From: Armatimonadota bacterium
GTDB lineage: Bacteria > Armatimonadota > UBA5829 > JAUSEB01
Length of the DNA stretch: 39,075 nucleotides
Assembly (NCBI GenBank): GCA_030649165.1
Contig: JAUSGG010000089.1
Span: 1 to 39,075, forward strand
Direction: 5' to 3'
In this document: positions 6,157-38,804 of the stretch, piece by piece
Position numbering within the stretch: position 1 is the first letter of the stretch
How the letters are laid out: every line of letters starts with the position of its first letter
Notes under the pieces: generated by a model
Told to the model about the DNA's origin: nothing
Databases searched by the model: none
Seen by the model: the letters and a program-made list of their open reading frames with translations, nothing else
Program-made: the position numbers and the translations under genes

Positions 6157-9100
6157 CTATAGCTCCGTATTGAGATGCTCCCACGGCGGCAGGCCATCGG
6201 GGCGCGTAGGCAAGGGGAACGGCTCGTATCGGAATACATTGCCCGTTATCGCGACCGCGGGGTTACCCTCGGCGTTGTCTTTCGTTCCGGGAACCAGCAG
6301 AAAGCTGGCCGGCCCTTGCGGCGTTGGCTTCTCCCCGAACGTCTCTTTCCTGAGCCGCTCTTCCTCAGCCGTCTTTTCCTCCACGAATACATTCGTCACG
6401 AGGTTCTCCTGTAACATCTCGTTGAATATCAGATTCCCAGTCACAGCGCAGCGCTCCGCCAACAGAATGCAGACCGTTGGCAGGGCGGACTTGCTGCGAA
6501 TCTTATTCGCGTTTACGATCACCGAACTCGCGGTAAAGGCGTCGGTATCCCATACGACCAATCCGGGAAAGGTCGCGCGGTCGCCGGTCGCGGCGCAGAT
6601 CACCTCATTATTCGAGAAATCGAGCGAGAGCGCGGAGTGAACGCCGGTCTTAACTATCGCTTGCAGTTCGATGTCCCCGATTTGATCGTCGATGGCCTGG
6701 ATACTCACTAAAGGCTCCACGTGCGGAATCGGTTTGCGCAGTTCAACGAGGTTCGCCACATCCCCGGTGGGTGGCTCCGTCGCTAGACGTTCAGACCGAA
6801 CGTTAAAGGTCAAGCCGTTGTTGATTACAGCCCGCACAAACGCCCCCCGTTTCAACACTTTTTCATCTGTTTCGGAGATTCGATTCGGAGCGGGAGGCCT
6901 TGCCGTCTTTACCAGCGCCGATCGTCTGAGATCATAATCGTCCGGCAACGGATAGCCTCTTGCCAGCAGGGCGGTGAATTGCAGGACAGGATCGCGCGCC
7001 ACGCCCGACATTACCTCATAGAGACGTGCCGCCGGCTCCGCAACGGTCCTTGGCGCCATGATTTCGGTAGCAGACTTGACGGAAGGCAAAGAGGCCAGAT
7101 CGAACAGACAGAATCCTCCGTAACAGTCTCTCACGGTGTTCGACTCGATCTTTATGGCGCCTGCTGTCGAGAAGATCAGAGCCGCGGCCGCGATCCTCTC
7201 GAAGCAATTGTCCCGGAACAGAGCGTTGTCCAGCTTCGAAAGGACCACACGACCTCCCGCCTCGCCGGCCGCCATTTGGCTGTTCGGTGTCATACCATAC
7301 CCCATCAAGAACCGAGAAGCAGTACGGACATCCTCAGTTGAGAGAAAGCGGTTTCTCTGCACGGTCAGATGATCGCACTCTCCGCTCGCAAGCACGCCGG
7401 CTCCCCAAACCATGCGCTTCTCGCCGGCCGGATAGGCAAACCGGCAGTCCTCGATAGTCAGGTTCGTGCAGTCGAACAGGCGAATCCCTATGCAGACAAG
7501 AAGGTCCTTCAGAACGGCGGCGGCGTTCCCTTCCAAATCCCCGCGCTCTCGGTTTGCCAGCTTGTCCGGCATTTCAACCAGTGGGGGCGCGAATTCGATT
7601 CCGCGCAGCGTTATTCGATCCGCTCCGTCGATGAGGATGAGTCCCTGCTGGAACTTCTCGAGCGCCTTCTCGTCAGCTCTGAGGACCACCCCCTCTCGGC
7701 AGGCTTTCAGAACCAGGTTGGGGTTCTTGCGACCGAGTTTCAACGTCTGGGGCAGGATATACGTTCCAGGCATGAAGCACACCGTCGCGTCTTTGAGTCT
7801 GCTGAGAAGCTTTTGCAGCCTGCCGGCGTCTTTCGGTGTCACAACGTGTGTGCAACAGCCGATCTGTTTCCTTTGGGTAAGCTCGACAAGATTGTCGAAC
7901 TGCTTCCGGCAGTCCGCGAGACGCGAACCGGTGTCGTCCTGCTTCCACTCGATGACCGCCAATGGACACACCCACCGGCGTGGTCCGTCGGGCGGCTGGG
8001 CCTCCTTGAGGTAACGCCCCGGATAGGCCTGTGTGGGCGTCGCGGGACGCAAAGCAACAGTCCAGTAATCGCCGACGTGACAAGTCCCCTCTACGCTCAC
8101 CAACAAGCCAGTGTCTCCGACCTTCTGCTTCTGGGCGGGCAAATCCAATATACCGTTCCAGACACGCAGGAAGACAGAAGGATCGCTGGGACCGCCAGTG
8201 GCCAGCGAGAACTGAATGGGAGTCTGCAATACGACAGTCTGTTTGTCCCTGTCGTAACCCTCGGCCAGTGTGGTGACATGGCCGGTCTCGGCGGCGATAT
8301 ACTGTCCGTTGCTCAACATCACGTCGGATGGGAGAACTTCGACCACCTGAACCGCGCCGGGTTCGTGCGCGGCGTCGACCGGAACAGAATGCAATCTGAG
8401 TGTCTTCTTGTCATTCTGAACATCCACGCGGTAGATGAAAGAAGCGTTGTCGTAACCCCAGAGAAGCTTGTCAGGGGCGGCGACCTGAAAGCGGATCATC
8501 CTGTTTTCCGCATCAAGAAATCCGTAGTGGGCGTCGGGCTGGCATTTGTCCGTGGACGTCTCCGTCTTCTCGAACTCAATGCTCAGTTTCGCCGACGGCG
8601 CCAACCGGCATGTCTTGTCATCGTACTCGAGGCCGGCCTTCCCCCACCAGGCTTTCACCTCCGCAAGAGCGTCACCGCAGGTGTCCGCTTTCGTTGGATA
8701 CCGTACAATGCGCTGAATTATGCGGAGACGGGCCGCGGTATCCGGCCCGCCGAGCGCCACGTCCCTCAGGGCTTCGTCCTCGACTGCGCTGACCTCCTGT
8801 TCCCGCAGTTCCAAGCAGATCAACTCGCGTCCCGTTTGCAGGGCCGGGTCCGGCGTCAGCCAATCGGGCTGCGCGCTGTAAGTGCAAGGCTTCGCCAGCG
8901 ATACGCGCACTCCTCCCACGTACATCGTGCCGGGACCAATCGTCAGATCGCGCGAACCATCGTCCACGGTACCGATGAGATAGCCGTTGTCAGGAGTTCC
9001 GACTGGCCCGACGAAATCGAGCGCGTCATCAGATATCTCCTGGCTTAGAATATCCTGGACTTCGTTTGCGTCGGCGGCGACGGTAACCCTGCCTTGCTGT

Positions 9101-9162
9101 AGAACGACGCCCCGGTATTGCTGGTTCGGGTCGTAGGAAATTCGCTCCCTATCGCTTCCCAT
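6157..9162 (-). CDS. eCIS tail-fibre / receptor-binding protein candidate (1001 aa) with a right-handed beta-helix region
   Basis: It is the last gene of the minus-strand operon, with GAGGAGGG 6 nt upstream of the ATG. The mid/C-terminal region has parallel beta-helix-like repeats (NLTIEDCRFAY...LTVQRNRFLS...ALFRDNCFERIAAAALIFSTAGAIKIESNTVRDCYGG). Its position after the gpI-like gene mirrors P2 gpH. Confidence 0.5.
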   Translation of the reverse strand: MGSDRERISYDPNQQYRGVVLQQGRVTVAADANEVQDILSQEISDDALDFVGPVGTPDNGYLIGTVDDGSRDLTIGPGTMYVGGVRVSLAKPCTYSAQPDWLTPDPALQTGRELICLELREQEVSAVEDEALRDVALGGPDTAARLRIIQRIVRYPTKADTCGDALAEVKAWWGKAGLEYDDKTCRLAPSAKLSIEFEKTETSTDKCQPDAHYGFLDAENRMIRFQVAAPDKLLWGYDNASFIYRVDVQNDKKTLRLHSVPVDAAHEPGAVQVVEVLPSDVMLSNGQYIAAETGHVTTLAEGYDRDKQTVVLQTPIQFSLATGGPSDPSVFLRVWNGILDLPAQKQKVGDTGLLVSVEGTCHVGDYWTVALRPATPTQAYPGRYLKEAQPPDGPRRWVCPLAVIEWKQDDTGSRLADCRKQFDNLVELTQRKQIGCCTHVVTPKDAGRLQKLLSRLKDATVCFMPGTYILPQTLKLGRKNPNLVLKACREGVVLRADEKALEKFQQGLILIDGADRITLRGIEFAPPLVEMPDKLANRERGDLEGNAAAVLKDLLVCIGIRLFDCTNLTIEDCRFAYPAGEKRMVWGAGVLASGECDHLTVQRNRFLSTEDVRTASRFLMGYGMTPNSQMAAGEAGGRVVLSKLDNALFRDNCFERIAAAALIFSTAGAIKIESNTVRDCYGGFCLFDLASLPSVKSATEIMAPRTVAEPAARLYEVMSGVARDPVLQFTALLARGYPLPDDYDLRRSALVKTARPPAPNRISETDEKVLKRGAFVRAVINNGLTFNVRSERLATEPPTGDVANLVELRKPIPHVEPLVSIQAIDDQIGDIELQAIVKTGVHSALSLDFSNNEVICAATGDRATFPGLVVWDTDAFTASSVIVNANKIRSKSALPTVCILLAERCAVTGNLIFNEMLQENLVTNVFVEEKTAEEERLRKETFGEKPTPQGPASFLLVPGTKDNAEGNPAVAITGNVFRYEPFPLPTRPDGLPPWEHLNTEL

Positions 9163-11302: not shown

Positions 11303-13762
11303 CTATCCCCCCGGAGTGACAGTTAGAGACTTACTCGTGAGCTGATAAAACCCACCCTCGCCGGGGTCGTGACGAATGTTGGTGTCCGGCGTCTTAGTGG
11401 AAAAGGAAAGCGCGCTCACGGCAATGACACCCGGAACACTCCGACAAGCGGCATATATCTGGCTGTCGAATATGGACTGCCCGATACGTATGACGTTCGC
11501 GCCAAAGAGTCCCTTGTCGGGATCCAACAACGCGGATCGAACACCGACCTCGACCATCCGGCCATCGTAGTCCGCATCGACGCGAATGGACAAGCTCAGA
11601 TCGACAGGAATCGGGTTCGCCGCTTCAACGACCACTGGACGATTGGGGTCGCCGGCGACCCGCAGCGCGGTCTGCGCGTCCTCTTTTGCCCGCTGATCGT
11701 CTCCAACGTAAACCTTTACCACGCCGCGCTGCTGCTGGGCGTCAAAGGACCAATACGCTCGCGCGCGCGATACGCTGGGAGTCTGCGCGGCAATGGCCTC
11801 ATAGTCGTCGGCTGACACGGCCCGGTTAAAGGCAAGCACGGATCGCGGGGCGTAACGACGAATCTGCTTCGGCGGGTCCGGATCGGCGCCTCCCCCGACC
11901 GACACCGGATTCTTGACGGACCGAAGGTTGGGAATGGGTTGGACAATCTCCGTCAGCGTTCCGGCAGGGACCGGTTCCGCTCCGCTGCCATACCGGTAGG
12001 TCGCTTTCACATTGTCTTTCCCCGTCGGGAGCCTTGCCCAGTTGACGCCGTCCCCGAACAGAACGTGTGTCTTGTTGTCCTCATCTTCTCTGGTCACGAA
12101 CACACGGGCATCGGGCGGTTGTCCGTAGAAACTGGAAACCTCTTTCCACTCGATGCCGTCTACCCAGACTCGCAGCGTGCTCCTGTAGCTCCCGGTCGAA
12201 GACGAGTCTTCGCTCAACAGGTACGTTAGAGGCGACTTCCCGAGGACGAACTCCTGTCCCGCCAGGCTCGCGCTTCCACTGCCAAGCGTCTCAAGCGAAA
12301 CGGTCTGTCCTTGAGAGACGGGGAGCAGCGCGAACAGCAGGCGCAGCGGCGCCGACAGTTCCGGCGGCGACTTGGACTCTGAGGTGATTACAATTGTCGC
12401 CGGCGACTCGGGGACCGTTGAAACCTTCACAACGTCGCCGCGTCCATGCGCGTCTTCTACAAACGCCGCCCCACTTGGAACCCCGTCCCCCGAGGCGGCG
12501 AGCAGCGTGTTGGACCCCCCAGAGATCGTTTCGGCGGGCGCGCCGATCAGCTCTCCTACATCCTGCCAACCGAATAGGACCTGCGCGCAGCCGTCCGGCA
12601 CGCCCTCCGCAAGGTCGATCTGGGTGTGCAAAACCGGAACGGCGGGGGTTGTGCCGGGGTCCTCCAGCTTACCGGGGTTGTTTGCATACCAGACAACCTC
12701 GCGGTAGCCCGTGACGATGACAATATAGAAGTCAGGATCTTCCCCCGGCGTCTCAAACAGCACACGCTCGCCAACGGCAATATCCCGAGACACCCCGACG
12801 AGATCGGCCAAGAAGCGGTCCGCTGGCGGGGGCAGGGGTGTCGCCTGCGCCGAGGGCGCGACGATGTCCGCAACAATCTTCGTATCGAGCTTTGCTATGG
12901 TGGACCCCTTGAGGTCGGCTACCATCTGCCCGCTGCCAGACTTGATAGGCTTCTTGCTTGCCGAGCCGCCGCCGAAGCTAAGCTTCCATATTTTGGAGGA
13001 ACGCGCGCTCTTCAGCAGCCTGTAATCCGCGGCCTTGGCCTCGTTGGGTACCTGCGGAGTTTCAGCAAACCATATCCTCGTATTCGGTTTTCCGCGCAAG
13101 TCCTTCTCCGGCTGCAACTGTTTGACCGTGAGCCATGCGTGGGATTGGTCCCCCGCGAGCAGCAGGCGGTCGCCAATCTTGACGGACGTTATCGCGCCTT
13201 TCAACAGCACACTGTCACCGGTCCCCATCAGATCAGGGTTCGGCGCCAGGTCCACATCCACGACATCCGGCGCTTGGATAACCGTCGCCGCGTCCAGTTC
13301 GAATATCCGCGGCTGCCGGCCCGGCCCGGGCTTGCTCCGAATCTGAAATCCCCTGGGCAGTGTCACCGGCCCTTGCCCCTGGATAAGCGCGGCGAGGTCT
13401 CCCCGCGCTCCTATACCCGGACGCGGACGGTAGCCGAGGACGCGGATGAGCCGCCGGACGCTCTCCGGCAGGCACGCCGTTCGCAGATACGCCTCGTTCG
13501 CGATGCGTTCGTTGTAGAATGTCAAGATGTCCGCCAGATACGCCCACCACTCCGCCATTTGGACCGCCAAATCACCGGTCACGCCGGGACGCCAGTTGAT
13601 GAGTTCCTTCTCAGAGAGCGCCGGATCGAGCGGAAGCAGGAGCGCCTGGCGGAACGCCGCGTAGTCCCCCGTGCGATAGGCGATCGCGGAGAAGCCCGGC
13701 TTGTTGGAAACGGCAATCGGGTGAATGAAAGTATCGCAGGGACAGGCGCGTTCTTTGCTCAT
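11303..13762 (-). CDS. Baseplate-J-like wedge protein, paralogue 2 (gp6/gp7-like; Afp11/12-like)
   Basis: ATGA overlap with the upstream gene, and GGAGGGAGG RBS. Baseplate_J-like motif: DLAVQMAEWWAYLADILTFYNERIANEAYLRTA...LIRVLGYRPRPGIGARGDLAA. Confidence 0.6.
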   Translation of the reverse strand: MSKERACPCDTFIHPIAVSNKPGFSAIAYRTGDYAAFRQALLLPLDPALSEKELINWRPGVTGDLAVQMAEWWAYLADILTFYNERIANEAYLRTACLPESVRRLIRVLGYRPRPGIGARGDLAALIQGQGPVTLPRGFQIRSKPGPGRQPRIFELDAATVIQAPDVVDVDLAPNPDLMGTGDSVLLKGAITSVKIGDRLLLAGDQSHAWLTVKQLQPEKDLRGKPNTRIWFAETPQVPNEAKAADYRLLKSARSSKIWKLSFGGGSASKKPIKSGSGQMVADLKGSTIAKLDTKIVADIVAPSAQATPLPPPADRFLADLVGVSRDIAVGERVLFETPGEDPDFYIVIVTGYREVVWYANNPGKLEDPGTTPAVPVLHTQIDLAEGVPDGCAQVLFGWQDVGELIGAPAETISGGSNTLLAASGDGVPSGAAFVEDAHGRGDVVKVSTVPESPATIVITSESKSPPELSAPLRLLFALLPVSQGQTVSLETLGSGSASLAGQEFVLGKSPLTYLLSEDSSSTGSYRSTLRVWVDGIEWKEVSSFYGQPPDARVFVTREDEDNKTHVLFGDGVNWARLPTGKDNVKATYRYGSGAEPVPAGTLTEIVQPIPNLRSVKNPVSVGGGADPDPPKQIRRYAPRSVLAFNRAVSADDYEAIAAQTPSVSRARAYWSFDAQQQRGVVKVYVGDDQRAKEDAQTALRVAGDPNRPVVVEAANPIPVDLSLSIRVDADYDGRMVEVGVRSALLDPDKGLFGANVIRIGQSIFDSQIYAACRSVPGVIAVSALSFSTKTPDTNIRHDPGEGGFYQLTSKSLTVTPGG

Positions 13763-16116
13763 TTTCCTCCCTCCACGTTGACCTTCAGCGAACCTGCGTC
13801 CGGTCTGTTCGGATCGTTGTCCACCCGGACGATCTCATCTTTGCCCACCGTGAGCGTAGAAGGCAGTTCCTGGTAATCGACCGTCCGACCCCGCCAGCGG
13901 TAATGGATCGAACACACGCCCGCGACTCCCTGGGCCTGCTGGACAGCGGCCTCCAGCGCGCTCCGCTCCAGCGGCATGCCGAATGAGAAGCGGTCGTAGT
14001 GGAAGAACCCGATGGTCCCATCCGGCGACTTTTCGGCGCTCAAGGCAGACAGCACGGCGGCTTCGACATCTCCCTGGAAGGCGTCCGGTTGAGCGCAGAC
14101 GTCGACCTGGAGGTCGAGCGAAGCGTAGCGCGGCTCCAGCGCATAGGATTCGTACCCCGCCATTCGATAGCGATTCAGCAAATCGATCAGCGTCTTATGG
14201 TTTTCTACGGCCAGCACATCAGTACCACGAGGGTCGACCGTCGTGAAAACGGTCAGCCAACTCCCCGTCCAGCGAAAACCCGTTCCGGCGCGCTGGACCC
14301 AGGGCAGCTCGCAGGCCGCTTTTTCATAATCCTCCGGTCTGACCGCGCGAAACTGCTTTGCCCGGAACCGCTGAGGAGCCAGTCTCTTAACGCGCTCGTC
14401 CGGCTCTTCGTCGACGCCTCCCTCCGCGGGGAATGGGTTCGTGACGGCATTCACGAACTCCGCTCCGGCAGCGGACGGATCCACCCGATTGATGCTGTCC
14501 GCGGCGACGTTCCCGGCCGATCCGTCCGAGACGCGGTACGTCACGGTGAAAGACGCGCCACTGTCGGGGACTTCACCGAAGACTCCGTCCCCGAATCGGA
14601 TGGTATAGCCATCGTCACCCGCGTAATCCTGCGCGATGTGCCCATTTGCCAATCGCGCGCACACGCCAAAACGAACGGCATCCAGCGTGAACGCCGATTC
14701 CGATTCGGCCGCCTGCAGCAGGCTTCGACGCCACGTCCACGCGCGCCCGCCGACGGCGTCGCGCTGAGTCAACTGTATCTCAGGCAGCGGGTCCGCCGCC
14801 GGGTCGTCCCGTCCAAGCCAGGCCAACGGTCCGCGGCGCAGCGTGTACAAGCGCTGGCGTACCGGCGACTGCGGCGCGCTATTGGGACCGGCGCGGACGA
14901 CGGCGGCCGTCGCGGTTTCGACGCTCGGAGAATCACCGTCAATCCGAAACGCTTCGATGAAGCGTCTTCCCTGTGTCGCCCAGACCAGATTCCCCGCCAC
15001 GACGGTCGCGCTCAGATCGTGGCAGTATTTCAGAGCGTCGTCCTCGCGCCAGTGAAGGAGCGTGATCTTCGCTTGGTACAGCGGATCGAATTCCTTCACG
15101 GGATCTCGGTCCAGCCGGACGATCTCCCGAACCGGCGGCGAACCCGGCGCCGACTGCGTCTCGATTAGAAGCAATTGGCCGATGGTAAGACCCATGTCAT
15201 GCCCCTGGACCCACATCTGAGTCGAACCGGCAAGCAGACAACGCTCGGTGTCGTCCCAGATGTAGGGATCGATGCGGTTCCATTTCGGGCTGACAACGAA
15301 ATCCGTCGGGTCCACCAGCCCACTCCCCGTCTCGAACCGGATGATCGCCCCATCCGGACCCTGGGCGCTGACCGGCAGGCCGGAGGGCAACGAATTGCCG
15401 CTAACGTTGAATTGCAGCAATACTCGGGCGGCGGTGGCCGGTCTTGGCTCATAGTCCACCAGACGCGCGTGCCGCACGATGGAACGGCGCTGGGTCGCCG
15501 TATCGAGATAGGCTTCGGCGGCAATGCGGTCCTGCGTGTAGCTCAGATCGTCCGCCAGGGCGCAAAGCGCCTCCATAAACATCATGCCTAAGTCGGCTTC
15601 CGAACGCTCCCGCCACTCCGGGTAGCGCTCGGCCGAGAAATCCAGAATCGCGCGCCGGAAGCTCTGGAAATCCTTGGCCATGTAGTCGATGGGCGGCAGA
15701 TCGGCGGGCAGGGTGGGGCAGGCGACCAGAGGACGCGCGCAATCCAGCTTCGACGGGCAGCCTGCTTTGAATGAAAACTGGGCGCTCGCGAAATACGGAT
15801 CGAGCACGTTGCTGATCTCCGGACCGCTGAGCGTCAAAGCGTAATTGGAGAAGTCGCCAGGCTCCTTCACCTTAAGGGTCAGGACCAGGTGTCCGCCGTC
15901 CTCTGTCCAGCCGGCAACGGACTCGACTGGAACGGTCGGAATAGTCTGGCCGCCGGTGATCGTCACCGTCTCGATCTTCTCCTTCACGGAGACCTTGTTG
16001 AAAAAGTGGGCGCGCAGCGTTGTCTGATCGTTCGACACCTCGACGAAGTCGATGCCGTTGAACTTGGGTATATCTTCGAGCAGGCTGGCCCGTCGGTCCT
16101 TTGATACTTCTGTCAC
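13759..16116 (-). CDS. Baseplate-J-like wedge protein, paralogue 1 (gp6-like; Afp11-like)
   Basis: It lies immediately downstream of gp25. It has a similar motif (MFMEALCALADDLSYTQDRIAAEAYLDTATQRRSIVRHARLVDYEPRPATAARVLLQ). Confidence 0.6.
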   Translation of the reverse strand: MTEVSKDRRASLLEDIPKFNGIDFVEVSNDQTTLRAHFFNKVSVKEKIETVTITGGQTIPTVPVESVAGWTEDGGHLVLTLKVKEPGDFSNYALTLSGPEISNVLDPYFASAQFSFKAGCPSKLDCARPLVACPTLPADLPPIDYMAKDFQSFRRAILDFSAERYPEWRERSEADLGMMFMEALCALADDLSYTQDRIAAEAYLDTATQRRSIVRHARLVDYEPRPATAARVLLQFNVSGNSLPSGLPVSAQGPDGAIIRFETGSGLVDPTDFVVSPKWNRIDPYIWDDTERCLLAGSTQMWVQGHDMGLTIGQLLLIETQSAPGSPPVREIVRLDRDPVKEFDPLYQAKITLLHWREDDALKYCHDLSATVVAGNLVWATQGRRFIEAFRIDGDSPSVETATAAVVRAGPNSAPQSPVRQRLYTLRRGPLAWLGRDDPAADPLPEIQLTQRDAVGGRAWTWRRSLLQAAESESAFTLDAVRFGVCARLANGHIAQDYAGDDGYTIRFGDGVFGEVPDSGASFTVTYRVSDGSAGNVAADSINRVDPSAAGAEFVNAVTNPFPAEGGVDEEPDERVKRLAPQRFRAKQFRAVRPEDYEKAACELPWVQRAGTGFRWTGSWLTVFTTVDPRGTDVLAVENHKTLIDLLNRYRMAGYESYALEPRYASLDLQVDVCAQPDAFQGDVEAAVLSALSAEKSPDGTIGFFHYDRFSFGMPLERSALEAAVQQAQGVAGVCSIHYRWRGRTVDYQELPSTLTVGKDEIVRVDNDPNRPDAGSLKVNVEGGK

Positions 16117-16117
16117 G

Positions 16118-16495
16118 TCAGATCACCCGCACTTCCATTTGCTTGCCCGATAGTGTCCCGATCAGCGTGTAATCTATCCGGATCAGCAGTGTGGACTCGC
16201 CGGCCTCTTCCGGCGGTATAACTTCGACATTGTTCACCTCGATCTTGCCCTCCAGCCATCGGTCCAGCGCCTGGAAGACGAGCAACTGGACCGTGGCGGT
16301 CAACGGCTCGGAAAGCGGCGCGAAGATCAACTGCCGCAGCCCGCAGCCGAACTCCGGCAGGTTCACCCGCTCGCCCGGCGAGGTCAGCAGAACCTGCCGG
16401 ATCATCTGCTCCACGTGAGATTCATATCCGGTCTGCGCCGCCTGCCCCGATGCGGGGTCTATCCGAAACGGATAAGCGTAATCATGACGGTTCAT
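16118..16495 (-). CDS. Baseplate wedge protein gp25/GPW family (Afp9/TssE-like)
   Basis: YPFRIDPASG...LLTSPGERVNLPEFGCGLRQLIFAPL...VQLLVFQALDRWLEGKIEV matches the gp25 lysozyme-like baseplate family. ATG at 16495. Confidence 0.85.
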   Translation of the reverse strand: MNRHDYAYPFRIDPASGQAAQTGYESHVEQMIRQVLLTSPGERVNLPEFGCGLRQLIFAPLSEPLTATVQLLVFQALDRWLEGKIEVNNVEVIPPEEAGESTLLIRIDYTLIGTLSGKQMEVRVI

Positions 16496-16506
16496 AGATG
16501 CTTTTC

Positions 16507-16881
16507 CTACCTCCCCGACACGCGGGGCTGAGTGAACTGGATAATGGCTGTTCCCTGAACAGCCTGGTCAGCGGCGACGCACAATCCGACGCTCGCCTCC
16601 GTCAGGTCAAAATCGCCGCTGGACTTACTCTGCGCGGCGGGCTGGACCCAGCGCACCTCCACGCACGGATGCGCCACCGTGCCGATGAAGAACGGACATC
16701 CCACGACCAAGAACGTGTCCGAAGATCGCAATAGCGGATCTCCCGCCGCCTTCGATCGAGTATTCGTCGTTATCGCATTGACCGTGCCCCCGTGGGGGCA
16801 GGTTATGACGCTTGATGTTGTAAGTAAGCCTGACAATTGTTGGACCTCTCGCAAACCTATCTGCGCCCGGCATATCTCCAC
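16507..16881 (-). CDS. PAAR-like spike-tip protein (DUF4280 family); start uncertain (GTG at 16881)
   Basis: VITCPHGG...GCPFFIGTVAHPCVEVRWVQ...GLCVAADQAVQGTAIIQF fits the DUF4280 Cys/His pattern. It lies 11 nt upstream of gp25. Confidence 0.6.
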   Translation of the reverse strand: MEICRAQIGLREVQQLSGLLTTSSVITCPHGGTVNAITTNTRSKAAGDPLLRSSDTFLVVGCPFFIGTVAHPCVEVRWVQPAAQSKSSGDFDLTEASVGLCVAADQAVQGTAIIQFTQPRVSGR

Positions 16882-16980: not shown

Positions 16981-18432
16981 TCACCGCCCCCTCGCAGTAA
17001 GACGGCGGACCAGAGCGAAGTAATGGGAATTGATGAACGAATCCGGTGTGTAGGTTCGCAACACCGCAACCGTGTAGAATCCCTCCGAGTACAAGTGTAC
17101 CTTCAACGGATTCCACCAGGAGGTTCCCCAATCGCGGGGATAAAGGTTCCGCATCTGAAGCTCGCCCTCGAACTGAACGCGCACCTCACCCCGTGCAGCC
17201 GCCTCTTCCGACACACCATGGCCCCCTGCAATCTCAGCCATCGTAACAGCAGGCCCGGTAGTAAACCCTCCGGTCGCAAACTCGACGGCTTTAGGTGCGA
17301 TGAGTTCCTTAACGCGCCCTGCATGGCGGGGGTCGCCGTATTCGGTAAGCAGTTGCCAGAACAGGCTCTCGCCAGGGGACAGACTCTCGCCCCTCGCTTG
17401 AGAGTCCGATATCAACTCAGCGATAGCTTGGCGATATACCTCGTGGACGAACTCATTGCAGTTGACAGTTCGAAGGTCGTCCGCAGTGGAGAACGGGTTG
17501 CCTGGGATTCTCAAGTACCGTCGTCCCTCGATGATGCTGACAGCTCGATCACGGATCTGAGAGGCACAAGGTCCCCGAAACCTTAGGACAGCGCCGCCGC
17601 GCGCATTGGCGGGATCAAAGAAAGACCTGGTGGTTACGGTCTCGTAACCATTCGCTTCCGTGTGGTGGACCGTGCCGCTGTCCAGTGCAATCCCTCCGTG
17701 GTTGTACTGCTCGCCAATGATGGTGACAAGCGGATTCTTGCCTGAAAAGGTACCTGCCCTGACGACTACATCGCCGGGCTCGATTTCCTGCTGTCCCGCC
17801 GTCAGGCCGGACGCATCTACCGTCTCTTGTGCGCCAACAGCTTGACAGGCCAGACCGATCCCGGTTCGCAGCATAATATCTATGGTTGCTAGATTGGAAG
17901 TGACCGAGCGACTGGCATGCGCCGCCTCTCTCTCCATTGGGAGCGACGACGGTGACGTACACGCGACAGCGCCGCTCGCACATTGCTGTAACGTATGCGC
18001 GATCTCGTGGGCAAGCAATCCCCTGCCCGCACTCGTACCCGGCGAGTACTGTCCTGCACCAAATGCCACATCCCTCCCCACCGTATAAGCCAGCGCCCCC
18101 ACCGCCCTTGCCGACTCCGCCGCCTTCGCATCCGTATGCACTCTCACATCGCCGAAATCGTGCGCGAACCGCTCCTCCATGAACCCGCGAATACCCGGCC
18201 CCAGCGGCTCGCCCGGCGAACGCAGAACCTCGTGCACGATCGGCGGTACGCCGCCGGGCGCGACTTGACTGGGGCGAAGCTGCTGTCGCTCCCTTTTTGG
18301 CATCCGCAAGAGAGCCTGATTGCCCGGCCCCTGCCCTGCCTCAACGACGCGCCGGCCAGGCGATCTTGCCAACTCCGCCTTTGCCGACTCTCGGGTCGTC
18401 TTGTTTTCAGTAGTCACGGTGCGTGTTTTCAC
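16981..18432 (-). CDS. DUF4157 (zincin-like HExxH) domain protein with ~320 aa uncharacterised C-terminal domain; eCIS cargo/effector candidate B
   Basis: FMEERFAHDFGDVRVHTDAKAAESARAVGALAYTVGRDVAFGAGQYSPGTSAGRGLLAHEIAHTLQQ is a canonical DUF4157 block. The C-terminal region, with NHGGIALDSGTVHHTEANG, is unrecognised. Start is GTG at 18432. Confidence 0.7.
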   Translation of the reverse strand: MKTRTVTTENKTTRESAKAELARSPGRRVVEAGQGPGNQALLRMPKRERQQLRPSQVAPGGVPPIVHEVLRSPGEPLGPGIRGFMEERFAHDFGDVRVHTDAKAAESARAVGALAYTVGRDVAFGAGQYSPGTSAGRGLLAHEIAHTLQQCASGAVACTSPSSLPMEREAAHASRSVTSNLATIDIMLRTGIGLACQAVGAQETVDASGLTAGQQEIEPGDVVVRAGTFSGKNPLVTIIGEQYNHGGIALDSGTVHHTEANGYETVTTRSFFDPANARGGAVLRFRGPCASQIRDRAVSIIEGRRYLRIPGNPFSTADDLRTVNCNEFVHEVYRQAIAELISDSQARGESLSPGESLFWQLLTEYGDPRHAGRVKELIAPKAVEFATGGFTTGPAVTMAEIAGGHGVSEEAAARGEVRVQFEGELQMRNLYPRDWGTSWWNPLKVHLYSEGFYTVAVLRTYTPDSFINSHYFALVRRLTARGR

Positions 18433-18443
18433 TCATTCAGCCT

Positions 18444-18725
18444 TCAGGCGGCCTGCGTCGGCCCACCGAACATCTTCTCGACCACAGCCGTCAAGATCGG
18501 GCCGGCATGGTCAATGATCTCGGCGGAGTAGATCCACCCGCCGCTGTCGTGGCCGCGGATCATGATCGCGCGGTTCTCGTAATCCTCCAGTCGGATTTCG
18601 GCGCTCTCCGGCGGGCGAGCCTCCTGCATCCCCATGCCGGTCAACCTCGCGCTGCCGCCGGCTCCTGCGGGCGACAGACGGTGGAATTCGCCGCCCTTCA
18701 CGATACCGAACATTTCCTCGTTCAT
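18444..18725 (-). CDS. Small hypothetical protein (93 aa), no TM segment; possible immunity/accessory protein
   Basis: ATG at 18725 with AAGGAGG 7 nt upstream (the tool-reported first M at 18728 is TTG). It lies downstream of the CHAP gene. Confidence 0.4.
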   Translation of the reverse strand: MNEEMFGIVKGGEFHRLSPAGAGGSARLTGMGMQEARPPESAEIRLEDYENRAIMIRGHDSGGWIYSAEIIDHAGPILTAVVEKMFGGPTQAA

Positions 18726-18789
18726 CAATGCGCCTCCTTATCAAAATGAAGTATCTGACATCAGACGAGAGACAACAGACCCGTAGTCT

Positions 18790-29114: not shown

Positions 29115-29624
29115 CTATAGTTCCTTCGGCTCTTGCAGAGACCGGTCGTGTTCCCAGCCCTCATGCTCCAGCTTGATATGCTCGATGGCAACTGCGTTCG
29201 CCCCGGCGTCCAGGTCGGATATCGCCTGATACTCGGACACCCAACAATTGTGAATTATGTAACGATGTACCGGCTGGCCCGCCTCGTTGAGCAGGTCTAT
29301 CCTCACTTCCCTGCGCAGGCTAGCCAGCGATGATGATGCGGCGCCTTTGTCCAATACCTGCGGCGCGTTGGCCCAATCCTCGAAATCGGGGTCGTGTGTA
29401 AGTCCTCGTTCGAGCGTGATGGGATCGTACTTCGTGCGCCCCATTCCCTTGCGTATGATCGTGTCCCCGCCCTGCTTGTACTCGATCGGGTCCGTCGACC
29501 TCTTCAGGCCGTTCACTTTGCTCACTCCCGCGACCGGCGTGGTGGATTGTCCCAGGAACACGAGGAAACGGAATGTCTTATAAGGGTCGAAACGACTAGT
29601 GTTGACGTTGAACTGCTTGGGCAT
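29115..29624 (-). CDS. Tail tube protein (T4 gp19 / Afp1-Afp5 family)
   Basis: GGAGGAG RBS 6 nt upstream. FRFLVFLG...GVSKVNGLKRSTDPIEYKQGGDT...ITLERG is the typical tube family pattern. Confidence 0.85.
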   Translation of the reverse strand: MPKQFNVNTSRFDPYKTFRFLVFLGQSTTPVAGVSKVNGLKRSTDPIEYKQGGDTIIRKGMGRTKYDPITLERGLTHDPDFEDWANAPQVLDKGAASSSLASLRREVRIDLLNEAGQPVHRYIIHNCWVSEYQAISDLDAGANAVAIEHIKLEHEGWEHDRSLQEPKEL

Positions 29625-29635
29625 GTGATCTCCTC

Positions 29636-31243
29636 CTATGACTGGGCCTGGCCCGCGAGCTGAGCGATCTTGATAATGACGAACTCGGCCGGTTTCAGCG
29701 GCGCGAACGCGACGATGATATTAACGATGCCATTGTCGATGTCCTGCTGCGTGGTTGTCTGGTCGTCGCACTTCACCTGGAATGCCTGACTGGGTGTGGA
29801 CCCCTGGAATGCCTGCTGTCGGAACAGTGAGAGCATGAAGGACTCTATGCTCGTGCGTATAGCGACCCACAACGGTTTATCATTTGGCTCGTGAACCACC
29901 CATTTCAGGTTGTCGTAAAGGGTCTGCTCGATGAAGAGAGCCATGCGACGGACCGGAACATATCGCCAATGCTTAAACGCCTCGTTTTCCGTGACCAGTG
30001 TCCTGGCGCCGAAGACCACGGTTCCTTTTCCAGGGAATGTCCGTAGACAGTTCACGCCCTTCGGATTGAGGGTTCCCTGCCTCATATCGGTCATCCGGCC
30101 GCGGTCCGCCACCCTGGTCGCATTCTTGACGATCGTCTCCAGCCCGGCGGGCGCCTTCCAGACTCCCCGATTGGTGTCGGTTCGGGCGTAGATACCTGCC
30201 ACATAGCCGCTCGGTGGGAGTTCGATAGTATCCCCCGTGTAAGGGTCCTGCGACTCGAGGTACGGGAAGTACAGCGCGCCGTTGGGGCTCTTGGGCATGT
30301 CCACTGTGAGCTTTTCCATCTCCAGCAGACCATCCATCCCGTCGGCGGAGGCATTCGCCGGCGGGTCCACGATCATGAAGGCGCGCTTTCGTTCACAGAA
30401 CGCGAGCCCCTGGCTCAGAACACCGTAGTCGTGGATTCCCGGAAGGACGAGCAGGTTGAAGATGTCGATCTTATCCAGCGAGCTATGTTCACGGAAGACG
30501 GGCGTGAAATCACCGGGGGCGAACATATTCTCATTCTCAAGAGTTGGCCAGACTGACGTCGAGACCTTCCCATCGGAAAGCTGGTAAGCGGTTGCCCCGG
30601 GGTTGAGTGAGACCTTTGCCAGCCCGGACACGTCGTTGATGCGTGTCTCAATGAAGTTCGGGTCCTTCTGGTCGCCCTTTTTGTCCGTCAGCGTGACGCC
30701 GCGATACGTCTCCACCCGTGAGCCGTAGGTGATGGTGATGTCATAGGTCTGCTCGGATAAGTCAGGCTGTTTGACCGTTACGATCATAGGCAGCAAGTCT
30801 ACAGGTTCCAGAGAGGTGAAGAGAACGCCAACGCCGCTGGTTCCTCCCTCGACCAGAACGCTGCCGGCGTCCTTGGTGAGTGGCTCTCCCGAGAGATCGG
30901 TGACTAGTTTCCCCGAGAAATCCTTGAGCTCCTCCCCCTTGTTGGCATAGGGATACTTGGGTCTCAGACCAATGACAAACGCGTTCGCCCCGTCGTTCAG
31001 GAAAAACTGATAGACCGCGTAAGCGACGTCGTTGTCGAACAGGCCGCTCCTGTACAATCCGCCGAACTTTTGCTCGTATTCGGCGAAACTGAGCACGCGC
31101 TCTGCTTGCTCAAACTTCTTGGTCTTGAATGGGTGGGTATAGCCGACAAACACGGTGATGGATGTAGCCGCCCCGGTGATGGTGTGGGTCGCGGGCGGAA
31201 GTTCTTCGATGTAGATTCCCGGATACGTAGGTGTGACCGGCAT
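29636..31243 (-). CDS. Contractile tail sheath protein (Afp2-4-like)
   Basis: The N-terminus TYPGIYIEE is a hallmark of eCIS/phage sheath proteins. GAGGAGG RBS. 535 aa. Confidence 0.9.
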   Translation of the reverse strand: MPVTPTYPGIYIEELPPATHTITGAATSITVFVGYTHPFKTKKFEQAERVLSFAEYEQKFGGLYRSGLFDNDVAYAVYQFFLNDGANAFVIGLRPKYPYANKGEELKDFSGKLVTDLSGEPLTKDAGSVLVEGGTSGVGVLFTSLEPVDLLPMIVTVKQPDLSEQTYDITITYGSRVETYRGVTLTDKKGDQKDPNFIETRINDVSGLAKVSLNPGATAYQLSDGKVSTSVWPTLENENMFAPGDFTPVFREHSSLDKIDIFNLLVLPGIHDYGVLSQGLAFCERKRAFMIVDPPANASADGMDGLLEMEKLTVDMPKSPNGALYFPYLESQDPYTGDTIELPPSGYVAGIYARTDTNRGVWKAPAGLETIVKNATRVADRGRMTDMRQGTLNPKGVNCLRTFPGKGTVVFGARTLVTENEAFKHWRYVPVRRMALFIEQTLYDNLKWVVHEPNDKPLWVAIRTSIESFMLSLFRQQAFQGSTPSQAFQVKCDDQTTTQQDIDNGIVNIIVAFAPLKPAEFVIIKIAQLAGQAQS

Positions 31244-31294: not shown

Positions 31295-32113
31295 CTACCG
31301 GGCCGTCACGGTCGCCGACGCGGGCTTCGCGTCGACCTTCTGTTCACCGCCGCTCAGGACTACAGTCTCCCCCTCTTGAGGAAGAGCATATTTCCCGCCC
31401 GGCGGTTCAGTTACTTTGATGAGATAGGCGGGGTGATCGAGCTTGCTGACGATATCGGCAGCGCTGATCGTCGTGAACTCTTTCTCCCAGGTGACTTCCA
31501 GTTTGAACGTCTTGCTGTTGCTGTCCACGGTAATCTTAGCCGTGGTGTGGTTGCCTGACTGGCCGTGCTTCTTGGCCTCCAACGTAAAGGCTATGGCGTT
31601 TGGATCGCCCGCTTCAGGCACGTCGACCTTTGACGCATCGCTGGCGTTCCCGCCCTTCAGCGGATAGGACCCATCCTCCGGGAGCTTCGACGAAGGCGCA
31701 CCTTTGACGTGAACAAGTCCTGGACTTGCCAGTGGATTCGCGTCCGTTCCCAAGACCGCATCGATGAACGAGGGTGGGGTCTCAATGCTCAAGGCATTAT
31801 GGGTTTCTGTCTTTGTGACGACGGCATCGAAAGTGCCAGACTGGACGTCGACCTTGCTGAAGGTGATCTTAATTCCGTCTCCCGCCGGTCCAGGATCAAC
31901 GGCGTGGATCACCATAGCCGGTTTTGGCGGCCCTGCTTCCGAGGGAACGATCAAGCCAATCTTGACCAGATGCTCGATCAGCTTCTCCGATTCAGGCACG
32001 TCTTTGAGCTGGCCGTTGTCAAAGCGGATGTCTGACAGCGGAGTGGCTTGCAGTTTACCGTCAGCGTCGGTATACTTCACGGGGCCGCGTCCTACAGCGC
32101 CTCTTTCTGTCAT
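31295..32113 (-). CDS. First gene of the operon, beta-rich hypothetical protein (272 aa); start moved to the internal ATG
   Basis: GGAGG lies 7 nt upstream of the ATG at 32113, and the promoter lies immediately upstream. No recognisable family. Confidence 0.5.
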   Translation of the reverse strand: MTERGAVGRGPVKYTDADGKLQATPLSDIRFDNGQLKDVPESEKLIEHLVKIGLIVPSEAGPPKPAMVIHAVDPGPAGDGIKITFSKVDVQSGTFDAVVTKTETHNALSIETPPSFIDAVLGTDANPLASPGLVHVKGAPSSKLPEDGSYPLKGGNASDASKVDVPEAGDPNAIAFTLEAKKHGQSGNHTTAKITVDSNSKTFKLEVTWEKEFTTISAADIVSKLDHPAYLIKVTEPPGGKYALPQEGETVVLSGGEQKVDAKPASATVTAR

Positions 32114-32139
32114 AGATTTCCCTCCTCCCTGATTCTTAG

Positions 32140-32180
32140 TTTGGCGATTATATCCCGCCTCCTGGATAATTGTCAAGTAT
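32140..32180 (-). promoter_or_regulatory. Near-consensus sigma70-type promoter for the eCIS operon (-35 TTGACA, 18-bp spacer, -10 TATAAT on minus strand)
   Basis: Plus-strand tgtcaa at 32171-32176 and attata at 32147-32152 are the reverse complements. The predicted +1 is ~25-30 nt upstream of the ATG at 32113. Confidence 0.5.
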
Positions 32181-32272: not shown

Positions 32273-33253
32273 TTACCGCGGCAGATCGAATGAGAAACCG
32301 CCGGCGCGTGCCCCGCGGACGATTTCGGGAAGCGCATCGACTGTTTGAGAAACCCCAGCGTGCAGGAGTATGACGCTTCCGGGTTTGATTGCGAGCAAAA
32401 CGCGGCGCGTGATCTCGGACTCCCCGGGACGGGCAAAGTCATAAGGGTTCACCACGGTCTCCGGCAGCGTCTCGCCGTTCAGCCTGCGGCATCCCGATTT
32501 GCCAGGCGGACGATAAAGGATCGGCGGGTTTATACCCAACGCCTCAAGCGCCCGCGCGCACTTTGGCAGGTTCATCTCCGCGGATTGGTGGTCCCAGCAA
32601 TGAATTTGCAGTGAATGCCCTTCTCTTGACGCTCTTCGCACGATATCCGCGGAACCGCTGAGACGGTTGCAGACGCAGAAGAACGCCGCCTGAACGCCCT
32701 GAGCGCGAAGCGCATCGAGAAGAGCGTCGTCCAATGCACTATCCTTGCTCGGAAAGTCGTCAAAGGTGAGGTAGATCGGGCCGGCCGACGCCGCCGCGCC
32801 ATTGAGAGCCGCGCGGACGGCGCCGACAACATCCGCTGAACGGATTATTCCATGCCTGGCGAAAGTCACCCTGCCGGTGGTCTCAACGACGACCGTGTAC
32901 GGTATTCGGTCCACCTCAAGCTCGGCGGTGAGGGTCCTTCCGGCATCGAGGAGCACGATGCCGCCGATTTTCCCGCGGGCGACGTCGGCCCACCGGCCAT
33001 CGATGGAAACAGTGAGAAAATCGACCGGCAGGCCGGAAAGCGCTCGGTCGGCCCGCGCGATGCGTTTGCCGTGCTCTTTCCAGGTGTCGCACCAGAAGGC
33101 GCAGAAGGAGATCACCGTCACCCTGCCCGGGATCCAGCGGCGGGTTGGGCCATCGAGCGACGTGAGAGAGAAGGGCTTCAGGGTGTCGCCGGGTAAAGGC
33201 GCGCCGGCCGCGGGCGGGACCCCGGCGGCCAGCAGCCCGGCGGTTAAAACCAC
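32273..33253 (-). CDS. Secreted polysaccharide deacetylase (NodB-homology) with N-terminal redoxin-like domain; start uncertain (GTG at 33253)
   Basis: IYLTFDDFPSKDS...GHSLQIHCWDHQ is NodB-like. An upstream TlpA-like segment (VTVISFCAFWCDTWKEHG) lacks a CxxC. The tool ORF's N-terminal 109 codons run across the repeat element and are probably untranslated. Confidence 0.6.
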   Translation of the reverse strand: MVLTAGLLAAGVPPAAGAPLPGDTLKPFSLTSLDGPTRRWIPGRVTVISFCAFWCDTWKEHGKRIARADRALSGLPVDFLTVSIDGRWADVARGKIGGIVLLDAGRTLTAELEVDRIPYTVVVETTGRVTFARHGIIRSADVVGAVRAALNGAAASAGPIYLTFDDFPSKDSALDDALLDALRAQGVQAAFFCVCNRLSGSADIVRRASREGHSLQIHCWDHQSAEMNLPKCARALEALGINPPILYRPPGKSGCRRLNGETLPETVVNPYDFARPGESEITRRVLLAIKPGSVILLHAGVSQTVDALPEIVRGARAGGFSFDLPR

Positions 33254-33333
33254 GGCTGTGACTACGCAAAGTCGGCCTGCGCCGACTAGTCTCGCCCAGA
33301 CGCCCTCCAGGTAAGGTACCTGGAGGGATAGGG
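33241..33333. repeat. Repeated palindromic element, copy 1 (hairpin agtcggc-N4-gccgact plus 11-bp inverted repeat ccctccaggta-N3-tacctggaggg)
   Basis: Near-identical to 33677-33766 and partially to 38886-38933. Confidence 0.8.
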
Positions 33334-33380
33334 TACAAGGTACGTGGAGGGATAGGGTACAAGGCGCCTGGAGGGGTAGG
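33306..33380. repeat. Three tandem ~24-bp repeats (ggagggatagggtacaaggtacgt-like) extending from the palindrome
   Basis: Read directly: ggagggatagggtacaaggtacgt / ggagggatagggtacaaggcgcct / ggaggggtagggtacgtgag. Confidence 0.7.
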
Positions 33381-33676
33381 GTACGTGAGTTGGTGGTTGG
33401 TGAGCGTGTTAACATTTTGGTCATCCGAGGCGCGGTGGGCCGTTTTCTCCTGATTTTGCGTTTTTCCGCACGAAACTGCTTTGAAACAGTTCTATTTTCG
33501 CACGATTCAGCATGGTAATCGTACCTAAACCGCACCGAAACCCGTGTACAAAGGTGTGAAAACGCGCGAAACCGCCGCAAAACTGAGTGAAACTGGTTGA
33601 GAATTGAGAGGGCTGGTTGACCAGCCCAGACCGGTTAGCGGTTAGCGGCTGTCTCCTTCGGCAGCCCTTGGCCAGG

Positions 33677-38251: not shown

Positions 38252-38804
38252 CCTCTGAACCTTTCTGCCCTGAGGCGGTAGAGTTGACACGGGGATCCCT
38301 CAGAGATGCCCGCTTTCTTGTAAGCCCACTTGAGCCGGACCTTTGGGTCTTTTCCTTCCGTACGATGCCGGCTCGCCCGCCGGCCTTCAAAACCAAGCCG
38401 TCCGCGGGCGCAAGCGAGCTTACATCCCCAATTGGCTCCGTCCGTTCCACGATTGTGATTGTGACGTGGAAATCCTTGAGGTCATTGCGGGTGAGCGGGC
38501 GATAGCGCGGGTCGTGGGAGGCGGCGGCGCGAGCCGCAAGGACGACTTCCTCTTCGAGAGAGCGGCTTCGCACATCGAGCGAGCCCCGGCACCCCACAAC
38601 GCGGCCTTTTATCTCGATAGTGACGAACACCGGACGCGCCGGGGATTTGCTTCTGATTGCGGGTGGAGCCTTTGCTTCGACTTCAGCTTTGACGGCCTCG
38701 CGGGCAAGCGCCAGGAGCTTGTCCTGGTTGTATGTGCGAGACGCGCTCGCCGGCAAGGTGAGCGCAAGCGCGGCCAGAGTGAGCGCTGAGCGTGAAGATA
38801 TCAT
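38169..38804 (-). CDS. AMMECR1-domain protein; C-terminal ~60 aa atypical and overlapping the next gene start (possible frameshift)
   Basis: RPVFVTIEIKGRVVGCRGSL...AARAAASHDPRYRPLTRNDLKDFHVTITIV fits the AMMECR1 core. The tail after DGLVLKAGGRAGI does not. Confidence 0.55.
   Translation of the reverse strand: MISSRSALTLAALALTLPASASRTYNQDKLLALAREAVKAEVEAKAPPAIRSKSPARPVFVTIEIKGRVVGCRGSLDVRSRSLEEEVVLAARAAASHDPRYRPLTRNDLKDFHVTITIVERTEPIGDVSSLAPADGLVLKAGGRAGIVRKEKTQRSGSSGLTRKRASLRDPRVNSTASGQKGSEDEKLQSLVDCICPALNADSGFRGAAGA

Follow-up and report, generated by a model that had tools for sequence, protein, structure and literature searches.

The 39,075-nucleotide stretch of DNA considered here (contig JAUSGG010000089.1 of assembly GCA_030649165.1, from an Armatimonadota bacterium; hereafter the window) carries a complete extracellular contractile injection system (eCIS), all on the minus strand, with eCIS genes spanning 6157-31243. 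Inside this cluster a 483-residue open reading frame at 16981..18432 of the minus strand, with a GTG start, encodes DUF4157 protein B (hereafter protein B), which is identical (100%) to GenBank entry MDO8586985.1 from an Armatimonadota metagenome-assembled genome (MAG), where its label is only 'DUF4157 domain-containing protein'. The C-terminal domain (CTD) of this protein is very probably a divergent member of the circularly permuted NlpC/P60 papain-like cysteine hydrolases, of the YaeF/YiiX type, as regards both its fold and its nature as a Cys/His enzyme, and protein B as a whole is probably a cargo of the injection system. Domain boundaries were drawn from alignments and from two AlphaFold models, one of the full-length protein and one of the C-terminal 324 residues (predicted local distance difference test, pLDDT, 79; core 85-98), and give the following layout.

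16981..18432, minus strand: whole gene, protein B, 483 residues (open reading frame list and the 100% database match)
18247..18432, minus strand: N-terminal region, residues 1-62 (pLDDT 27-32 in the full-length model)
17980..18207, minus strand: DUF4157 or eCIS_core domain, residues 76-151 (Pfam PF13699, formerly DUF4157, E 4.5e-30)
17995-18009, minus strand: HEIAH, residues 142-146, an HExxH motif inside the DUF4157 domain of protein B
17791..17973, minus strand: linker, residues 154-214 (pLDDT 27-42, a low-confidence model)
16984..17790, minus strand: putative C-terminal effector domain (CTD), residues 215-483, compact alpha/beta

The architecture of protein B is modular. Residues 1-62 are low-complexity, rich in Arg, Pro and Gly and devoid of secondary structure, as judged from composition and the full-length model, and neither a signal peptide nor a transmembrane segment was found in them (maximum hydropathy 1.33). 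The DUF4157 region is modelled over residues ~63-153 with pLDDT 85-94, and is followed by a linker that varies in both sequence and length and shows no conservation in alignment A1. The first-pass annotation of this DNA had set apart a single unrecognised domain of about 320 residues at 16981-17955, which is exactly residues 160-483 plus the stop codon. The region is real, but it is composed of a linker of about 55 residues and a folded domain of about 270 residues (215-483) rather than of one domain.

At the level of sequence the word 'unrecognised' was accurate, because the C-terminal 324 residues returned no match in Pfam (E<=1), in NCBIfam, PHROGs or PADLOC (E<=0.01), or among PDB sequences (phmmer, E<=10). 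The further statement that the region matches nothing does not hold once structures and profiles are compared, since by these the CTD matches circularly permuted NlpC/P60 enzymes. In the Foldseek comparison that the first-pass annotation had proposed, the CTD model found only 2if6 and 3kw0 below E 1e-3 in the PDB, and against viral models (BFVD) the matches were labelled 'Permuted papain-like amidase YaeF/YiiX C92', poxvirus OPG091 and LRAT. [quoted passage not shown] Nor is the family so matched a non-toxic structural one, which had been held to speak against a toxin; it is an enzyme family that includes known toxins.

Profile comparisons lead to the same family. A hidden Markov model (HMM) of the close subfamily, run against 1.84 billion cluster representatives, retrieved only 61 proteins at E<=1e-3, the most remote of which score on Pfam Peptidase_C92 (PF05708, YaeF/YiiX) with E values down to 2e-12; these remote members, and only these, pass the PF05708 gathering threshold of 27 bits, at 40-48 bits. 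Among PDB sequences the family-wide profile (A4) matched YiiX (E 1.4e-10) and 3kw0 (E 1.2e-6), with an hhalign probability of 97%. As a control for circularity the five C92-type rows were removed from this profile and the comparison with YiiX was repeated, which gave 17.5 bits and E 0.02 (PDB size) in hmmsearch and an hhalign probability of 88% (E 3e-6) in the same residue register. The close-subfamily profile (A2) gave only noise matches among PDB sequences. On sequence grounds the CTD is best placed inside the clan as a sister family of PF05708 and outside PF05708 itself, because it is the remote family members, not protein B, that exceed the curated threshold.

The predicted active site and the features peculiar to the family map to the window as follows.

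17698..17700, minus strand: His245 (NHGG motif), predicted catalytic His, invariant in the 46- and 24-sequence alignments
17656..17670, minus strand: VHHTE, residues 255-259, the strand after the His strand
17488..17505, minus strand: PGNPFS, residues 310-315, invariant in the close subfamily, at the position of the YiiX Tyr115-Asp116 oxyanion element
17458..17460, minus strand: Cys325 (TVNCNEF motif), predicted nucleophile, invariant in the family
17068..17331, minus strand: family-specific insertion or extension, residues ~368-455, including an invariant FEG at 421-423

His245 and Cys325 are the sole invariant columns across 46 members, and in an alignment of 24 sequences they are joined by Asp221 and Arg225. 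Every alignment pairs His245 with His49 and Cys325 with Cys128 of YiiX, which are the published catalytic residues of that enzyme (PMC3142127). His245 precedes Cys325, and in both models Cys325 opens a long helix (325-346); with the His before the Cys and the Cys at a helix start, the arrangement is that of a circularly permuted NlpC/P60 enzyme. The first-pass annotation had suspected a hydrolase-like active site in the segment GQQEIEPGDVVVRAGTFSGKNPLVTIIGEQYNHGGIALDSGTVHHTE, which lies at residues 213-259 (window 17656-17796). This segment does hold the catalytic His strand and the HHxE strand that follows, but it is only part of the site, the nucleophile Cys325 (in NCNEF), some 80 residues further downstream, having been missed. 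A third, polar catalytic residue may be supplied by VHHTE, where His256, His257 and Glu259, each at least 90% conserved in the close subfamily, are the candidates. The alignments disagree on this point, hhalign setting Glu259 opposite Glu64 of YiiX and MAFFT favouring His256 or His257; relatives carry an IHD motif with His and Asp at 256/257, and in C92-type members an Asp aligns with His256. It was also considered whether the last ~115 residues form a separate known domain. This was rejected because the final strand-TP-helix-strand resembles the YiiX C-terminus, on a reading of the sequences, and because the part in between varies from 70 to 100 residues depending on the subfamily.

The C-terminal region has 13 homologues of 35-67% identity in a database of 5.8 billion proteins. 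With these it shares long invariant blocks (GDV, YNHGG, VHHxE, GGAVxRFxG, RYxxIPGNPFS, TVNCNEF, FEG and TP..F..S..F), and it follows that the region is real coding sequence under selection. The family is rare, for beside the 61 clusters in 1.84 billion representatives a scan of 185,579 species genomes with the close alignment found 2 loci; phyla among its sources are Armatimonadota (protein B) and Planctomycetota (two other homologues). Across the family the domain occupies the C-terminus or the C-terminal half of the protein. About 24 of 69 family proteins join it to DUF4157, several others have long unannotated N-terminal regions in front of it, and it also occurs alone. One stand-alone homologue (284 residues, 43% identity; locus L003, 1-2163 of the Pirellulales MAG contig JAFGFZ010000098.1) lies outside any eCIS and has genes for a DUF6861 protein and a DcrB-family protein upstream of it, a setting in which the enzyme family may be delivered, or met by immunity, in another way. 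Another member, the 929-residue P0048 (locus L008, 41-2830), begins with ~670 unannotated residues and ends in the domain. Its region abounds in mobile-element and conflict genes, among them an integrase, a PIN/MazE pair, restriction-modification genes and a gene for a MafB19-like deaminase protein, a setting that suggests a polymorphic-toxin-like use outside eCISs.

Homologues of protein B recur inside eCIS operons at four other loci, here L005, L006, L009 (from a groundwater metagenome) and L010 (a Zavarzinella MAG). In the window the sheath, tube, AAA ATPase, Pvc16 cap, spike, gp25 and Baseplate_J genes are all on the same strand as protein B.

29636-31243, minus strand: sheath
29115-29624, minus strand: tube
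26181-27443, minus strand: Pvc16-type cap
24100-26199, minus strand: eCIS AAA+ ATPase, Afp15/Pvc15/Alg15-like (Pfam AAA and WHD), presumed cargo loader, a role taken from the literature
23027-23680, minus strand: second tube-like protein
21610-22737, minus strand: gpD hub
21101-~21620, minus strand: Phage_base_V spike, with 34-57% identity to the base_V genes annotated in L005, L006, L009 and L010
19696-21075, minus strand: DUF4157 protein A, 459 residues, neighbouring putative cargo (Pfam eCIS_core at residues 197-273, E 7.9e-31)
18790-19545, minus strand: PG_binding_1+CHAP endolysin-like protein, 251 residues, with many PHROG endolysin matches, between the two DUF4157 genes
18444-18728, minus strand: 94-residue open reading frame with a TTG start, filling the space from the CHAP gene to protein B, with its end 11 nt before the protein B start
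16507-16881, minus strand: small conserved protein directly downstream of protein B, with same-position counterparts in L009 (53% identical) and L005 (32%)
16118-16495, minus strand: gp25 (Pfam)
13759-16116 and 11303-13762, minus strand: two Baseplate_J proteins
6157-9162, minus strand: DUF6519 fibre

The spike open reading frame as listed (21101-21841, 246 residues) over-extends upstream and overlaps the gpD hub, its true start probably lying near 21620, just past the hub gene. DUF4157 protein A has an N-terminal region of ~196 residues and a C-terminal region of ~185 residues, neither with a family match, and its counterpart in L009 has a weak Peptidase_C39_2 match. The PG_binding_1+CHAP protein has neither a DUF4157 domain nor a long N-terminal region, and no counterpart in L005, L006, L009 or L010; it may serve in release by lysis, act as an accessory that pierces the wall, or indicate that this eCIS has a bacterial target. 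The 94-residue reading frame has a G+C content at third codon positions (GC3) of 0.84, which suggests real coding. It has no match in Pfam, PHROG or PADLOC, no transmembrane segment and no homologue in the related loci, and is a possible chaperone or immunity gene. The product of 16507-16881 may be read as a PAAR-like spike tip, although it has no Pfam match. On the sheath side of the eCIS, beyond an unannotated open reading frame at 31295-32176, lie genes for a polysaccharide deacetylase-domain protein (32273-33580, minus strand) and a 1469-residue bacterial alpha-2-macroglobulin (33881-38290, minus strand).

The place of protein B in these operons is not fixed. L009 is gene-for-gene syntenic with the window and has its homologue in the same slot, with the spike genes on one side and the PAAR-like and gp25 genes on the other, while in L005, L006 and L010 the homologue directly follows the AAA ATPase, beside other DUF4157 genes; neither slot is the 3'-end position described as typical for eCIS toxins. 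Divergence of the machines does not predict divergence of the protein: L009 shares 40-77% identity with the window in its structural genes and only 33% in the protein B homologue, whereas L005 and L010 have more distant machines and homologues that are 58% identical. Cargo identity is decoupled from machine identity. In the window both DUF4157 genes have a GC3 of 0.65, compared with 0.74-0.75 in the structural genes (sheath, ATPase, baseplate J) and the CHAP gene, which is consistent with cargo genes having an evolutionary history other than that of the machine. A comparison of the genes flanking the homologues at seven loci, made in search of an immunity gene, found no conserved neighbour.

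Protein B is laid out like the DUF4157-type eCIS toxins described in two surveys (Geller 2021, PMC8213781; Danov 2024, PMC11297309) and like Cgo1 and Cgo2 of the AlgoCIS cargo, that is, with an N-terminal domain (NTD) that is disordered, a DUF4157 domain with HExxH, a linker and a variable C-terminal effector, and like theirs its gene belongs to an eCIS operon that includes an AAA+ ATPase. It differs from them in the family of its CTD and in having its gene within the baseplate block. For AlgoCIS cargo the disordered NTD is needed for loading, DUF4157 is dispensable and the AAA+ protein of the system mediates loading (preprint 10.64898/2026.05.27.728243). Since the NTD-DUF4157-CTD layout fits both this scheme and the DUF4157-toxin pattern, an effector role for protein B is the probable one, and by analogy with Cgo1 and Cgo2 residues 1-62 would be its cargo-loading sequence, their disorder serving only as a proxy for such a function. 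The proposal of the first-pass annotation that the C-terminal region is a candidate novel toxin domain delivered by the eCIS is borne out in so far as architecture and operon location fit a cargo or toxin. It fails on novelty, for a toxin built on the permuted NlpC/P60 fold is an old concept, already used by the effectors TseH and Tox-Act1 of type VI secretion systems (T6SS) (PMC12994826).

The closest relative of the CTD, YiiX of E. coli, is small, exported and stands alone, whereas the CTD forms the C-terminal part of a DUF4157 protein from an eCIS. TseH of V. cholerae (6v98, Pfam DUF6695) and Tox-Act1 of Salmonella share the permuted NlpC/P60 core, but the CTD is structurally closer to the YiiX clade than to either, and its delivery would be by eCIS, with a disordered NTD and DUF4157, not by T6SS. 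Neither Pfam DUF6695 nor DUF4105 matches protein B, and whereas Tox-Act1 has its Imm-Act1, the protein B family has no conserved adjacent immunity gene; by sequence membership and by the lack of an adjacent cognate immunity gene, then, protein B falls outside the TseH/Tox-Act1 clade. [quoted passage not shown] LRAT/PLAAT (H-RAS-like suppressor) and viral H-box/NC proteins resemble the CTD in structure far less than YiiX does, and protein B has no Pfam LRAT match and no C-terminal membrane anchor. The NCNEF motif of the CTD may be likened to the NCEHF motif of LRAT/PLAAT-type proteins. PLAAT and LRAT proteins are phospholipase A enzymes or acyltransferases.

These relatives bear on the substrate. 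The YiiX crystals contained a fatty acid, and a hydrophobic S1 pocket is a feature of PPNEs (PMC3142127); LnsA, one component of the two-component LnsAB, and Lnb, an N-acyltransferase identified in Bacteroides, are implicated in lipoprotein N-acylation (PMC12994826, PMC7387801); and Tox-Act1 and TseH are phospholipases whose toxicity requires both His and Cys (PMC12994826). Because the characterised permuted members (YiiX, PLAAT/LRAT, LnsA, Lnb, Tox-Act1, TseH) are lipid-directed, a lipid is the most likely substrate of the CTD, a class-level guess by analogy to which we give slightly less than an even chance. The reading as a whole, in which protein B is an eCIS cargo whose permuted NlpC/P60 CTD is likely lipid-directed, stands slightly better than even.

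What the analysis of protein B shows is the fold class, the conserved Cys/His dyad in permuted order, the modular build and the repeated occurrence in eCIS operons; loading, delivery, toxicity, lipid substrate and the identity of the target organism are matters of inference. In the proposed course of events the protein would be loaded through residues 1-62 and the AAA+ ATPase and then injected into the target cell. There His245 would activate Cys325, with His256, His257 or Glu259 orienting His245, and the Cys325 thiolate would attack an acyl carbonyl to form a thioester intermediate that is resolved by hydrolysis or transfer. The most likely substrates, judged from the relatives, would be membrane lipids or lipoproteins, attacked at a fatty-acyl ester or amide, and the injected enzyme would damage the target membrane by a phospholipase A-like or deacylase action. 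Tox-Act1 is toxic in the periplasm only and not in the cytoplasm (PMC12994826), and the missing immunity gene would likewise be explained because a lipid-directed acyl hydrolase stays harmless in the cytoplasm of its producer.

Several observations weigh against this account. The close subfamily taken alone is only modestly similar to YiiX (hhalign probability 65%, E 6e-5), and neither protein B nor its C-terminal part reaches a PF05708 match in Pfam even at E<=1. The fourth catalytic residue of the PPNEs, a strictly conserved Tyr (YiiX Tyr115, BcPPNE Tyr127; PMC3142127), is absent from the CTD, where Gly311 stands at the Tyr115 position, on what is an approximate loop alignment; other subfamilies have Trp or Phe at this position, and the conserved Asn312 stands where YiiX has Asp116. 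With the Tyr115 equivalent replaced, the CTD may use an oxyanion chemistry, and possibly act on a substrate, other than those of YiiX. About 90 residues of the CTD (~368-455) have no counterpart in the YiiX sequence alignments, which stop near residue 367 (one HMM alignment reaches about 380), and matches to C92-type relatives likewise end at profile position about 203-214, before the insertion; this stretch, 70 to 100 residues long depending on the subfamily, has pLDDT 82-94 in the CTD model. As to function, Xu et al. proposed a lipid-amino-acid amidase and not a phospholipase for YiiX, which is why 'lipid' is a guess at the level of class. The neighbouring PG_binding+CHAP gene hints at a peptidoglycan theme, and the stand-alone homologues at L002 and L003 and the DUF4157 fusion at L007 lie away from any eCIS.

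A more novel reading is that the CTD founds a distinct, undescribed permuted NlpC/P60 branch specialised as contractile-injection cargo, with a substrate or chemistry unlike that of YiiX, PLAAT, TseH or Tox-Act1, a possibility that we regard as unlikely, at about one chance in four. The ~90-residue insertion with its FEG and an Asn-based oxyanion site in place of the Tyr would then provide the different chemistry, examples of which would be a PLAAT-like rupture of eukaryotic organelle membranes or the removal or transfer of acyl groups on target lipoproteins or lipid A. If this were so, the CTD would be the first NlpC/P60 effector in an eCIS to act on lipids.

The peptidoglycan theme suggested by the CHAP neighbour has its own reading, in which the CTD, in the manner of canonical NlpC/P60 and CHAP enzymes, hydrolyses peptidoglycan as an amidase or endopeptidase, either helping the particle to cross the wall or lysing bacterial prey. 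This is rather improbable, as the CHAP gene is missing from all the related loci and the best matches of the CTD are lipid-type members.

Marginally less probable again is that protein B is never injected and instead serves its producer as an accessory enzyme, in particle maturation, in cargo processing or release, or in envelope lipid or lipoprotein remodelling tied to lysis-dependent release. DUF4157 is of unknown function and dispensable for loading (preprint 10.64898/2026.05.27.728243), the gene lies in the middle of the baseplate block and not at the 3' end where toxins usually lie (PMC8213781), stand-alone homologues occur outside eCIS loci, and among permuted NlpC/P60 enzymes LnsA and Lnb are housekeeping lipoprotein acyltransferases (PMC12994826, PMC7387801), all of which would suit such a role. 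The operon position nevertheless changes between loci, from after the ATPase (L005, L006, L010) to before the PAAR-like gene (window, L009), and the divergence of protein B is decoupled from that of the structural genes, behaviour that is typical of exchangeable cargo and unlike that of a fixed assembly factor. The combination of disordered NTD, DUF4157 and variable CTD, moreover, matches cargo loaded experimentally (preprint 10.64898/2026.05.27.728243), and many other DUF4157 fusions are validated toxins (PMC8213781, PMC11297309).

A protease or deconjugase acting on eukaryotic proteins rather than on bulk lipids (a PPPDE-like deSUMOylase or deubiquitinase, or a peptidase of lipidated proteins) is a shade more doubtful still, because the CTD resembles PPPDE far less than it resembles YiiX, protein B showed no features for binding ubiquitin or SUMO, and the absent immunity gene is explained equally well by a periplasmic or outer-leaflet lipase made in the cytoplasm (cf. 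Tox-Act1). That the CTD is a catalytically dead scaffold, or its NlpC/P60 likeness a modelling artefact, is very improbable, for although the canonical Tyr is missing, the CTD model was built from just 14 sequences and protein B has no direct Pfam match for the CTD, the His and the Cys alone stay invariant among members that share as little as ~20% identity, three structure searches made independently agree with the sequence profiles on one family and one residue register, and the core pLDDT is 85-98.

Protein B reveals no new fold, delivery principle or toxin concept; DUF4157-toxin fusions are already known, and so are this fold with its permuted active site and its deployment as a toxin by a contractile system (T6SS). 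What is new is a rare family that has no Pfam model, its family-specific insertion and non-canonical oxyanion position, and its association with eCISs. In the main text and supplements of the eCIS surveys, as far as these were available, no mention of a Peptidase_C92, LRAT or permuted NlpC/P60 domain was found, and a full-text literature search on permuted NlpC and contractile injection likewise found no mention of the association, which is not proof of its absence from the literature.

Of 1130 DUF4157-bearing eCIS toxin candidates, 983 are without an annotated effector domain (PMC11297309). For one such candidate an enzyme class can now be given, His245 and Cys325 being its predicted key residues, and a compact (~270 residues), rare enzymatic payload is added from little-studied phyla. 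Should this payload act on lipids, it would damage membranes and might as such be of use in engineered delivery by eCISs. In the reading of protein B as eCIS cargo, the range of permuted NlpC/P60 domains as weapons would extend from the T6SS, as in TseH and Tox-Act1, to the eCIS.

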